DNA from: Hormiphora californensis
Lineage: Eukaryota > Animalia > Ctenophora
Assembly: GCA_020137815.1 (NCBI GenBank)
Contig: CM035360.1
Coordinates: forward strand, 7,130,001-7,194,000
Direction of reading: 5' to 3'
Length of the DNA stretch: 64,000 nucleotides
The translations under genes were made by a program, and so were the position numbers. Position 1 is the first letter of the stretch, and each line of letters begins with the position of its first letter. Under the pieces are notes generated by a model. That model ran no database searches, was not told the DNA's origin, and saw only the letters and a list, made by a program, of their open reading frames with translations. Below are positions 43,308 through 57,834 of the stretch, piece after piece.

Positions 43308-45171
43308 TTATATCTTATTTTTTATAATTTCTTTAAGTTCTTTTAATTCCATTAATAGTTCTGCTAAAGAGCATTCGCAGGATCTCTCTGGAACTGTAGG
43401 GGGGTTGTCAGGAGGGTTGACAGAGGGGTTTGGCTCCTTTTCCAATGCCTGAAGCAATATTTATTATTTAGTGACTCTGCAAACTCTAGATAAAAAAATA
43501 CACCGGGAATACCAATACATGCAGCACAAACCTTGATCAGCAGCCCTTTCAGATCTGATTTTTTGCATTTTGTCCGGAAATGTATCCCCAGCTCCCGCAA
43601 ATTCTGTTTTAATTCCTCAACATTTAAATATTGGGCCATATCAGTGGCCGCCTCCGTTGAGACCTTGTCTAAAGGATAAATATATTACACATATGATTAT
43701 AACGTATATTTTGTTACATCTTATTTCGAATCTACATCTCTGAATGAGCAAGCTCTAATATCCACTTACTCTTGACATGAGCAAGGAAATTGCTCTTATT
43801 GGTCCTCTGGGAACCTAGAGGGATTCCCTCCGCTTCCAAATTTCTTTTTACAATATTTTTGCCTAACCTCTCCCCCAGAGTTTTTCCTCACAACCTGGGA
43901 TGAGGTAGGCTCCACAGACGGATGTACCTGTGATACCATGTGTTACTAAAGTAATGTGACTTATTAGATGTAGCTAGATTATTAGATGTAGCTAGCTTAC
44001 CGCATTGTGGAGGTTCATTGTGGCATTCTCACCAGGACTCATGTTTAGAGCCAGAGTAACCAGTCCTGGTCCTGGTTCTCCTGCAGTAGGCAGCGGTGTA
44101 GAAGCTACCTGTATTGATATGAGGTGTTAAATTTGTTAATTTATCAACATGTTATTCATAATTTGTGATGAATATTACCGCATCATTGACATTGAAAGAG
44201 TCCTGTGGCGGCAACAGGCTCTCCAGTTGGCCAGGTTGAAACACTAGGTCATCATCCCACATCTGCAGAGGGAGGGGGATGTCATTATAAGACATACAAA
44301 TGTCAAAACCTTGTCAAACTGTGTCACACACAAACCATACTTACGTCCTCATCATCATCCTGATCTAGAGCCATTGGTGGTGGGGAGGGTTTTTTTAACA
44401 AGCTCTCCAGCTGGCCAGGTTGGAAATGGAAATCATCCCACATCTGGGGGAAGAACATCTATCATGATACACACACACACACACACACACACACACACAC
44501 ACACACACACACACACACACACACACACACACACACACACACACACACACACACACACACACACACACACACACACACACACACACACACACACACACAC
44601 ACACACACACACACACACACAGCAGATTTATTCACACATACCTCTTCATCCTCGTCTTGGGGCACCTGATCCTGATCAAACATACCATTAGCCCCCTGTA
44701 AGTGTAATAGTATGTTAAAAAAAGAGTGAGTAAGTCGATCGAGTAGATTCAGTGTATGTATAGAGGTGGAAGGTTCAGTGTATGTATAGGGGTTTAAGTA
44801 AAACTCACCCTGCTATCAGCCATTAACTTCCCTAAACTGAGTAGGGATGGAGATGGAGCCATTGGTGGTGGGGTGGGACGAGGCAGCAAGCTCTGTCCGC
44901 TAGGGAAAAGTATATCATCATCCCACATCTAGGGAATAAAACAGGATGGTTCAGAAACTTGGAGATAATAATTGTAAAAATACAATCCTCTCTCTATTGT
45001 ACGGATCCAAATTTCAACGTGTTACAGTTGACAGGCTGATAATTTTTAGGAAAGAGTATACATCATGACAGATATGCACACGCAATAATATAATTTGATC
45101 ACACATACCTGTTCTTCCTGGTTCATGTTTGTTAAAACATTATCGACTTGTGACGTTGTTAGGAAAGACAT
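43308..45171 (-). CDS. Polinton multi-exon gene: acidic/Pro-rich MWDD repeats, SAP-like helical motif, C-terminal coiled coil
   Basis: Exons 45171-45109, 44928-44809, 44695-44642, 44443-44345, 44262-44179, 44108-44001, 43927-43769, 43668-43532, 43448-43308, all GT-AG; one unresolved 1-nt frame problem near 43870; LNVEELKQNLRELGI..KSDLKGLL. Confidence 0.65.
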
Positions 45172-45223
45172 GTTACCTTAGACGGGGGTGCTAAACAACA
45201 AAAACGCATTGTTTAATGGCAAT

Positions 45224-45786
45224 CTAATAGCATACTACATCATTGGAATAAATAACCACACAATTGTGTCTGTTTTGATTTTGCCACCCACTAAGTTCAT
45301 ATTTTTGTCCAATTATCAGGCCTGGGGTTAGACGAGTAACAGCACAAAACGTTTCATCACTATCACGAAAGTACAGCTTCATGTAGGTCTCTTCGTTTTT
45401 AACTTTGATAAGCTCCCAAAATCCTAAACAAGGAAAGTTAAACAAATATACTAAGACCAGCACTGTACTAAACCTTTTATTTTTATTTTTGATGCATCAT
45501 GGTCTGTTGGACACTTATCAACAATGAAGCGATGGCATATAGGGCAAGATTGAAAGCTGGCTTTCCTAACTCTTTTCACTTTACGAAACCGACGGTCAGA
45601 ATACCCATCATGGAATTCAATATCTAGGTGATCACCAACAGCAACAGATAAATTCTTCAAGTGTGAAGGAAAGAGACGAACAGAGTAGGCTTCATGCCAA
45701 AATCCTGTTTCAGTTATCAAATCTAGGCGAACTCCTCCGAAAACGTCGGAAGATGGTTCCGAAAACAAAACACTAGCAAATACCAT
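45224..45786 (-). CDS. Polinton 2-exon gene, beta-rich with a CxxC motif (unknown function)
   Basis: Exons 45786-45474 and 45423-45224 joined by a 50-bp phase-1 intron giving KIKG|FWEL. Confidence 0.75.
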
Positions 45787-46257
45787 TTTTACAATTGTGT
45801 GAGGAATGAATAACTTATATAGGTATTCGATTTATAAAAAAGAAAAATATTTTTTTTCCCACAAAAAATCCTGAAACAGTAAAATAAATGGACCGATCAT
45901 AACTTGGAGATCACAGTTGCATGTAAGAAAACTATATATTTTTTACACGTGTATCCCATGTGGATAACCTTCGGACAGAGGGGGATCTAGTAAGACAACT
46001 TCAAAGAAGAGAACGACGGAGAGAGGAGGCATCTTGTTCATGCAAACGATACACCCCAGTACACGGAATAATGCGGGGTGTATATATCAGGAAGTTATAG
46101 GATCGAGGGATGTACGGTTTACAGATGCATGCAAGAAAATTACACATCTTTTTCACGCACTACACTATATATATATATGGCAGCTAATAGAACCTCAATA
46201 CTCGAAATCGCTTGCTATATTTGTTGCTTACCCTCAACTCAATCTTTTAACTCAACC

Positions 46258-56844: not shown

Positions 56845-57119
56845 ATTCTAGGACGGTACGGCGTAAGTCGCTTCTTCTTGAATCGTTTTTTTGACGCACG
56901 GTTAATGTGAGATACAGCCTTGGAACTCAACCCTTTTATAGCTTCCGCGGCTAGAGGAGCTACGATTGGCAGCGCTCCTCGCAGAAGTGATGCAAAAAAG
57001 GAGCCAACCCCCTCGCCGTTTTGATCATAAATGTAATACCCTTCTTTGTCCAACCCTCCCCCATGCTGCATCATCATTTGACGGTAGCGAGACACTTGAG
57101 AAAACGATAGATCTTCCAT
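56841..57119 (-). CDS. Small core/pVII-like protein with QxGxG motifs and basic tail
   Basis: QHGGG, QNGEG, GSFFASLLR..LP, KKRFKKKR. Confidence 0.7.
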   Translation of the reverse strand: MEDLSFSQVSRYRQMMMQHGGGLDKEGYYIYDQNGEGVGSFFASLLRGALPIVAPLAAEAIKGLSSKAVSHINRASKKRFKKKRLTPYRPRI

Positions 57120-57150
57120 TTTTTGAAATAATGTTGCATTACATCCCTAT

Positions 57151-57834
57151 TTATAGATCTCGGACATGCAAATTAACCATAGAATCAAATTTTGAAGAAA
57201 ACGGTAAGAGCTCTCCCTTGATATTTCTCAAGACTATTTCAACTTTTGAAAACTCGTTAACTTCAATTGGTATATATGATGGAGTGCTAAACTCATAAAA
57301 AACATAACCTTGATCGTGATGGGTTACAGGCACTACAGCTAAAATTCTAGATCTTTTTCCATTAATATAACTGCCAACAACAATGTTACAATATACAAAA
57401 CATAATTCAGTGTTTATCTGATCATATTGTCTTGATTTTGTAATAGTTTCATTTTCTATCAACCATGTTCGCTCATCATCTTGGGAGGTTTTTAAAAATG
57501 ATGGAAGTGAAATAATGCTAAGTGACTTGCTGCAGATAAAACGGATCATACTGTCTATTTCATGCACTAAAACAACATCTTCGTCAACAGTAGAGTTTAT
57601 CTGATTTGCAATAGTTACCGCAACATCATAGCTGGTCCCATACCTCTTTGATTCTATCGGTAAACAATAGTTCTCAGATTTGTACTGAAATCTGGTGTAG
57701 AACGATGACAAATCACCATATGCAATTGATTTTAGTGCGATGACAGGCTGCTTCATTTCCACCGGATCGAGAGTCGTTTTCAAAATGGCCGGGTTCGCAT
57801 TTCTTCCTCCAATTATTAAAATATTTGACGCCAT
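57151..57834 (-). CDS. Minor capsid (penton-like) protein, inferred
   Basis: 227-aa beta-rich ORF; FVYCNIV..S.ING..ILAVVP..Y.P..F..VEI.L....GE C-terminal pattern. Confidence 0.8.
   Translation of the reverse strand: MASNILIIGGRNANPAILKTTLDPVEMKQPVIALKSIAYGDLSSFYTRFQYKSENYCLPIESKRYGTSYDVAVTIANQINSTVDEDVVLVHEIDSMIRFICSKSLSIISLPSFLKTSQDDERTWLIENETITKSRQYDQINTELCFVYCNIVVGSYINGKRSRILAVVPVTHHDQGYVFYEFSTPSYIPIEVNEFSKVEIVLRNIKGELLPFSSKFDSMVNLHVRDL

Follow-up and report, generated by a model that had tools for sequence, protein, structure and literature searches.

Predicted spliceosomal introns in the replication module of a ctenophore Polinton with an intronless capsid block

The DNA analysed here, referred to below as the window (64,000 nt of contig CM035360.1 of Hormiphora californensis; all coordinates are positions within it), contains at 42,472-59,765 a Polinton/Maverick, a 17.3-kb element with 17 genes lying in a eukaryotic nuclear genome. 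It is an integrated Polinton of the adintovirus type, bounded by terminal inverted repeats (TIRs) of about 830 bp (42642-43304 and 59014-59654 match at 95%). Five adjacent genes in its left part, g1, g2, the polymerase gene pPolB, g4 and g5, are predicted to carry 16 introns (8, 1, 4, 2 and 1, respectively), all GT-AG and 46-198 nt in length. A sequence-only reading of this DNA had already proposed these 16 introns at 43308-51507, with the same distribution and with lengths of mostly 50-180 bp; all were recovered (16/16 GT-AG), 14 of them within that range. It had also described the genes at 51583-57834 as an intronless integrase/virion module. The absence of introns holds for every one of these genes, none of which has a strong in-frame donor/acceptor pair, and the integrase and capsid genes are indeed uninterrupted; the limits and the name have to be amended, since the intronless block continues to 59047 with two more genes and includes genes unrelated to the virion. 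No strong in-frame donor/acceptor pair was found in any of the 12 genes at 51583-59047.

The predicted splice sites stand out clearly from their surroundings. When scored by leave-one-out against 358 background GTs and 442 background AGs, the median true donor is equalled or exceeded by 1.3% of the former and the median true acceptor by 1.7% of the latter, and g2, pPolB, g4 and g5 after splicing read from ATG to stop codon in frames without stops. It could be argued that this copy is decaying and that the predicted introns are in truth unspliced intervals left by recent insertions, introners or frameshifts of the assembly, an idea in line with the many deletions in the right TIR, with a frame break in g1 and with the invasion of Polinton-like proviruses by introners in dinoflagellates described in passages of PMC11957031. 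However, the sites are strong and uniformly GT-AG, the long open reading frames (ORFs) are intact and intron positions appear to be common to distant relatives (see below), all of which makes this explanation very improbable. In addition, blastn found no match among the 16 introns or between them and the rest of the window, which argues against introners, and an introner origin was rejected since there are no repeated intron families within the window.

The intron borders of pPolB are fixed by the fit of its exons to a homology profile, built from 96 of the 120 homologs listed (those of at least 1,140 aa). Exons 1-5 tile profile positions 37-162, 166-236, 241-318, 323-367 and 369-1174, and when joined with X at the junctions they give a single domain of 1,044 bits. 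Intron 1, 84 nt long, is stop-free, and reading through it cuts the profile match in two. Following the domain scheme (terminal protein, vOTU, polymerase) set out in a portion of PMC11161782, all four introns would fall within the terminal-protein/vOTU/zinc-finger part or at Exo I. The closest database relatives of pPolB are about 39% identical at near length and 52% on short fragments; a search with short pieces of the gene gave no close relative, the best match being 52% identical over 10% of the query.

The small spliced genes were compared with a set of related loci, 28 of them metagenome loci found by alignment of the major capsid protein (MCP) and one, in a genome bin, found by alignment of the packaging ATPase; a viral contig collection yielded no relative of pPolB, MCP or ATPase. 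Uninterrupted single-ORF homologs of g5 and of the gene at 51583-51978 are present in loci L017 (14 kb) and L029, and those of g2/g4 in L017, L019 and L006. Across its junction g5 aligns with the intronless homologs (z 9-12 against L017, 0/1000 shuffles), while the alignment to uninterrupted homologs gives a global z of 5.3 for g4 and 3.1 for g2, each of which outscores 300/300 shuffles against a three-sequence profile. The existence of these intronless homologs in marine Polintons indicates that g2, g4 and g5 are viral genes, and a host-cargo origin was rejected on this ground and on the resemblance of the g5 fold to an adintovirus protein. The predicted fold of the L017 homolog of g5 (pLDDT 83 with 11 sequences) is that of a DEDD-type exonuclease, with matches to RNase AS in PDB (E 2e-4) and to a Drosophila-associated adintovirus 2 protein and ichnovirus proteins in BFVD; a PDB sequence search with the g5 profile gave nothing significant. 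Whether this homolog is active as an exonuclease is uncertain, since its first motif shows a single acidic residue. The g2 and g4 genes are probable paralogs, and the g2 intron and g4 intron 2 occupy the same alignment column in the same phase. An OB-fold or a role in ssDNA binding is a guess from their beta-rich pattern; the single-sequence fold of the L017 homolog has a pLDDT of 34, and the ESM Atlas matches of g2 exon 1 and of this homolog are all sub-0.9. No homolog was found for g1, the product of which has acidic MWDD repeats expanded by exon duplication (exons 2, 4 and 5 are duplicates together with their acceptors) followed by two HeH/LEM-like motifs (E=0.016, under the cut-off); it could be a DNA-tethered activator. 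Exons 7 and 8 of this gene (43770-43878 and 43532-43630, minus strand) contribute one similar HeH/LEM-like motif each, and its intron 3, the longest at 198 nt, contains a long (CA)n microsatellite (44469-44621).

The genes of the intronless part are tightly packed. Three 4-nt ATGA overlaps, at 54711-54714, 55420-55423 and 56841-56844, are present in the sequence as had been reported. The MCP and protease genes overlap in 18/18 related loci that have both (by 4 nt in 15 and 1 nt in 3), and overlaps also occur in relatives whose small genes are uninterrupted; judged from these loci, the capsid-block overlaps are an ancestral trait and not special to this element. The capsid labels are putative, resting on size and synteny; searches of Pfam and PDB sequences with MCP and of Pfam with the minor capsid protein gave no significant match. 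The gene at 54992-55423 bears what we take to be the H/D/Q/C motifs of adenain/Ulp1 and follows MCP in 18 loci. The packaging ATPase is 64-70% identical to those of five related loci. The predicted membrane glycoprotein, which would be a single-pass N-glycosylated protein with a signal peptide, has homologs at 668-1285 in L017 (z 5.5-8.4) and at 1437-1955 in L029, with no family match.

Table 1. Features of the H. californensis Polinton, as positions in the window
Feature	Position	Strand	Remarks
Left TIR	42472-43304		starts AGTAGTGT immediately 3' of a (CT)n microsatellite
g1	45171-43308	-	9 predicted exons, 8 introns
g1 introns 1-4	45108-44929, 44808-44696, 44641-44444, 44344-44263	-	GT-AG
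g1 introns 5-8	44178-44109, 44000-43928, 43769-43669, 43531-43486	-	GT-AG
g2	45786-45224	-	beta-rich, CxxC...C motif; 1 intron, 45473-45424, phase 1
Internal copy of TIR segments	45952-46094		copies of 43141-43224 and 43019-43053, between divergent g2 and pPolB
pPolB	46177-50279	+	5 exons, 4 introns; PF03175, E=6e-20
pPolB introns	46953-47036, 47281-47360, 47588-47669, 47807-47871	+	GT-AG
g4	50933-50330	-	family of g2; introns 50783-50734 (phase 0) and 50585-50536 (phase 1)
g5	51507-50987	-	DEDD-type 3'-5' exonuclease-like; 1 intron, 51380-51322, phase 1
Unnamed gene	51583-51978	-	intronless; homologs in L017 and L029
C2H2 zinc-finger/coiled-coil gene	52039-52791	-	intronless; two-way TATA box common with integrase
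Integrase, retroviral-type, with chromodomain	52849-53895	+	intronless; rve 3e-14, Chromo 4e-7
Packaging ATPase	53885-54484	+	intronless; weak Adeno_IVa2 and Pox_A32 matches below cut-off
Two small ORFs	54463-54714, 54711-54995	+	intronless; ATGA overlap
Adenain/Ulp1-like protease (putative)	54992-55423	-	intronless; presumed from motifs and synteny, no Pfam match
MCP (putative), 474 aa	55420-56844	-	intronless; assigned by size and synteny
Small basic core-like ORF	56841-57119	-	first gene after conserved TATA box at about 57155
Minor capsid protein (putative)	57151-57834	-	intronless; assigned by synteny
Predicted membrane glycoprotein	58026-58493	-	intronless; homologs in L017 and L029
ORF	58646-59047	+	intronless; ends inside right TIR
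Right TIR	59014-59765		ends ACACTACT (59758-59765); many small deletions, outer 110 nt very noisy

The partition of the introns is difficult to ascribe to chance. With 6,272 nt of coding sequence on the left and 7,014 nt on the right, the probability that all 16 fall on the left is 6e-6, or 1.1e-3 when g1, the introns of which are partly duplicates, is set aside, and the probability that five intron-bearing genes out of 17 cluster at one end is 3e-4. These are all post hoc tests, tempered by a 5' bias of the introns: the last 2,408 nt of pPolB are intron-free as well. Such a sharp partition would fit a temporal programme with spliced early and unspliced late genes, along the lines proposed in the sequence-only reading. 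Late mRNAs would then arise either while the splicing of the host is suppressed or bypassed, as in HSV-1, or with the aid of a helper virus outside the nucleus. In the same direction, CTATTTATA, a TATA box reading on both strands, occurs three times in the element, always in the intronless part (52816, 57147 and 58590), and 0 times in 42 kb of host flank. There are precedents, as three of the five immediate-early genes of HSV-1 are spliced against six of at least 84 genes overall (in the sections of PMC6597130 on splicing), and introns restricted to early genes have been taken to link a virus to an early nuclear phase (passages of PMC12768974, which for such mirusviruses propose a helper virus or an extranuclear late phase). 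However, the integrase, the zinc-finger gene, the gene at 51583-51978 and the two right-end genes are intronless as well, and no gene for a splicing inhibitor or an RNA polymerase was recognised in the element. Moreover, CTATTTATA, which lies 32-55 nt before the ATG, is also found in relatives with uninterrupted small genes and reads as an ordinary Pol II TATA box; L017 and L029 conserve the copy that separates the zinc-finger and integrase genes. We thus regard a temporal programme as an unlikely cause of the layout.

Alternatively, the element might be a chimera in which the intron-rich replication module of a long-resident nuclear element was joined to the capsid module of an intronless, horizontally transmitted virus, the boundary near 51,550 being the recombination seam. 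Replication and morphogenesis modules often reassort, according to parts of 10.64898/2026.10.13.758929 and PMC10748475, MCP has database relatives at 86% and 64% identity where pPolB has none above the values given earlier, and an internal copy of TIR segments adjoins pPolB. Nevertheless, GC content shows no step at the module boundary, and homologs of g5, g2/g4 and the gene at 51583-51978 travel with this MCP family in L017, L029, L019 and L006, suggesting that the small left genes are part of the same gene set. Close pPolB relatives may moreover be missing merely because introns fragment gene calls. Taken with these objections, a chimeric origin is distinctly improbable. As regards the relatives themselves, no pPolB match was found in any of the 28 metagenome loci (0/28). 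Near its end, at 12152-13888, L017 has an ORF with multiple C2H2 zinc fingers and a stand-alone one of 144 aa, and the contig has no pPolB; its ORF at 13424-13888, which by eye resembles a pPolB N-terminus, was rejected as such (z 0.1 against the window pPolB). L029, 4503 nt in whole, is a Polinton fragment filed under a bacterial metagenome bin, and the protein P0011 is likewise named as bacterial.

The age of the introns was judged at protein level, from predicted sequences. P0333, which is 39.6% identical to the last pPolB exon, has an in-frame F/Y/I-rich insert of ~70 aa precisely between the equivalents of exons 4 and 5. The first residues of the insert are GK and the last are IS, as expected of a phase-1 GT-AG intron translated in frame. 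This suggests that pPolB intron 4 has a positional counterpart in a 39%-identical polymerase. In the P0333 cluster, 8/13 members begin in or span the insert and the other five begin further downstream. All members of the P0201 and P0203 clusters (6/6) end with VS after KLM, a donor-like tail, 6/7 members of the P0202 cluster end after NNL, and several such pPolB fragments sit on contigs far longer than their ORF; fixed fragment ends with donor-like tails point to further introns in the catalytic core. Similarly, three of the eight phmmer matches to g5 exon 2, at 37-45% identity, have FS-D/E as their first residues, right where the acceptor lies, the eight including P0322, a spurious repeat match. 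Some of the introns are therefore likely to be old, gained long ago in the lineage.

The sequence-only reading had wondered whether the element represents a lineage of intron-bearing polintoviruses, a suggestion that gains support from the position shared with P0333, from the fragments starting at the g5 acceptor and from the company that the window pPolB keeps in trees. In a 20-row IQ-TREE mixture run it groups with the fragment families P0006, P0202 and P0201 at 100/99, an earlier tree had placed it with the fragment families at a support of 0.977, and in three FastTree column sets it joins them fully in one, partly in one and not in one. For a set of 30 rows, the constrained tree beats the free one by 20.2 log units (p-AU 0.973). 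Two pPolB motif variants are common only to the window, P0006 and P0202 (2/185 and 2/169). The window pPolB thus probably belongs to a clade made only of exon-sized fragments. For its part, MCP falls in a 12-row clade (SH-aLRT 97) containing all three Pleurobrachia bachei gene models found, which by itself makes a ctenophore host likely. The nearest five MCPs in the databases have their full length (476-485 aa), which fits a capsid gene without interruptions throughout the clade. Outside the window clade, the pPolB fragment P0217 breaks off within polymerase motif A in a donor-like tail, which hints at an independent intron gain elsewhere.

Our preferred reading, held with moderate confidence, is an old gain of introns in the monocistronic genes of the replication module under nuclear Pol II, to which a coupled capsid block was resistant. 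Host RNA polymerase II would transcribe the element from TATA promoters and the left genes would need the host major spliceosome, so that the terminal-protein/vOTU/polymerase polyprotein and its helpers (two putative DNA-binding proteins, the exonuclease-like protein and the acidic HeH protein) would be made only in a splicing-competent nucleus. On the right, TATAAATAG lies upstream of the core-like ORF in 11/19 loci, and neither the MCP nor the protease ATG has a TATA box within 90 nt. The best acceptor before the MCP ATG scores 0.0 in the window (median -1.3 in 21 loci), and the median before the protease ATG is 2.9 in 17 loci, where true acceptors score 6.5-11.8. Splicing of a leader onto the late ORFs was rejected since no conserved acceptor precedes MCP or protease. 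Without nearby TATA boxes or conserved acceptors, the simplest reading is that a single mRNA, driven by a TATA box, would serve the core, MCP and protease genes and be translated by stop-start coupling. Nonsense-mediated decay (NMD) is invited when an exon-junction complex remains downstream of a stop codon. An intron in a downstream cistron would deposit such a complex after the upstream stop and expose the mRNA to NMD, and the block would in this way resist intron gain. Early/late timing may ride on this layout, which does not require it.

Splicing could also gate replication, much as it does in P elements, since retention of pPolB intron 1 would insert 28 residues in frame and that of intron 2 would stop the protein within vOTU. 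A bolder proposal is that animal polintoviruses, among them ctenophore elements, include a deep and so far overlooked clade in which the whole replication module is spliceosome-controlled and the coupled capsid operon is intron-proof. Regulated splicing or retention of the four introns in the terminal-protein/vOTU half of pPolB would then decide whether the full polymerase or a priming or truncated product is made, and hence switch the element between active and latent states. We consider this whole scenario possible, if rather doubtful.

Several points seem difficult to reconcile with old introns and a coupled, intron-resistant block, or weaken the case for them. The splicing of the 16 introns is a prediction from sequence, and the evidence for shared introns depends on the ends of predicted proteins. 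One RNA data set matched 44700-59800 with a single 48-nt piece, which says nothing about expression. Exon 7 of g1 (43770-43927) has a frame break, which makes the eight-intron model of this gene the least certain, and together with the losses in the right TIR it may mean that the copy is decaying or partly mis-assembled. The paralogy of g2 and g4 appears weakly supported (1/1000 shuffles in the global comparison, 164/1000 in the local one). Coupling and NMD leave aside four intronless genes with a TATA box of their own (51583-51978, the zinc-finger gene, the membrane gene and 58646-59047), g1 and g5 bear introns and yet lie without a TATA match close behind a same-strand gene, and poly(A) hexamers, being mostly absent, do not resolve the transcription units. 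As for the pPolB trees, their rows were hand-chosen and the group was defined once the first tree had been inspected, one FastTree column set puts the window pPolB with P0204/P0210, and in the free 30-row IQ-TREE it stands apart from the fragment clade (0/200 bootstraps, long branch of 1.79).

In most respects the element resembles animal Polintons/Mavericks and Alpha-type adintoviruses, which in the relevant passages of PMC8097293 and PMC8502044 have the same TIRs, pPolB, RVE integrase with chromodomain, ATPase, protease, capsid order, modules and size of about 17 kb. However, PMC8097293, in its passages on intact vertebrate Mavericks, reports no introns and uses intronless ORFs as a mark of intactness, citing Kapitonov and Jurka 2006 likewise, whereas here pPolB and four other viral genes are predicted to be split; pPolB departs from the intronless-core-ORF trait with its four introns, and the other core genes are intronless. 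Nematode Mavericks, according to portions of 10.1101/2022.07.12.499685, have introns in host cargo genes and none in core genes such as the polymerase, unlike the split pPolB and the g2, g4 and g5 genes with homologs in other Polintons found here. The dinoflagellate proviruses share spliceosomal introns inside Polinton-like elements, but those introns are, in the account excerpted from PMC11957031, repeated, mostly young and transposon-derived, while here they are unique, look old and lie in one module. Mirusviruses, which belong to another realm, have short GT-AG introns of around 80 nt, which the part of PMC12768974 that also discusses early-only introns takes to indicate nuclear transcription; these introns are enriched in virion genes, the reverse of the pattern here. 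The late units of adomaviruses and adenoviruses are alike in having a capsid operon of uninterrupted ORFs in the order penton-core-hexon-protease (sections of 10.1101/341131), but in adomaviruses the late ORFs are reached by splicing to an acceptor immediately 5' of each ATG, and no such acceptor is conserved here. The bias of splicing towards early genes in HSV-1, as excerpted from PMC6597130, parallels the bias towards the left module.

No description of spliceosomal introns in core genes of animal Polintons was found in the literature, supplements and Repbase Reports not being covered, and term look-ups in the partial texts of PMC10748475, PMC8502044, PMC12220804, PMC11296320 and PMC11071296 returned none. 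In a passage of PMC10120064, genes were called with prokaryotic tools as these viruses 'do not contain introns'. Survey pipelines blind to introns would score an element of this kind as decayed and drop its polymerase from trees, while still finding the capsid block. A complete element with introns in one module makes it possible to test directly where and when the genes of Polintons are transcribed, an open question that matters for elements whose virions are rarely or never seen. It is also a clean example of viral genes that gained introns and can be compared with uninterrupted homologs. An element with spliced replication genes would need the host splicing machinery to copy itself.

The ends of the element and its surroundings deserve a final comment. 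Polinton TIRs presumably follow an AG...CT rule, which the AGTAGTGT and ACACTACT ends fit. Relative to the left TIR, the right one lacks 25 nt, has 3 additional nt and differs by 4 substitutions, a pattern that resembles decay or long-read errors left uncorrected. A 6-bp target-site duplication is not readable in the flanks, a (CT)n run on the left and noisy C/T-rich sequence on the right. The internal copy of TIR segments between g2 and pPolB is possibly a shared promoter or origin element. The last codons of the ORF at 58646-59047 (59014-59047), which stops within the right TIR, are duplicated at 43271-43304, just behind the g1 stop. To the left of the element lie matches to host genes, Ars2/SERRATE (1075-1377) and a DEAD_2/Helicase_C_2 helicase (5096-9177), with further pieces of an MFS transporter in a single long ORF (17064-18698) and of a sulfotransferase (32460-32789). 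An intact 1,001-aa endonuclease/reverse-transcriptase ORF at 27778-30783 (plus strand) belongs to a LINE element. An inverted repeat at 38426-39399 (arms of 471 nt, 96% complementary, around a 32-nt spacer), with related short repeats at 24702-24872 and 38154-38326, is probably a foldback or MITE-like element. The window also contains a 100-N assembly gap (35143-35242), two inverted 10-nt tandem arrays within 6019-7082 and a 173-nt dispersed repeat found in inverted orientation at 31915-32087 and 62333-62505.

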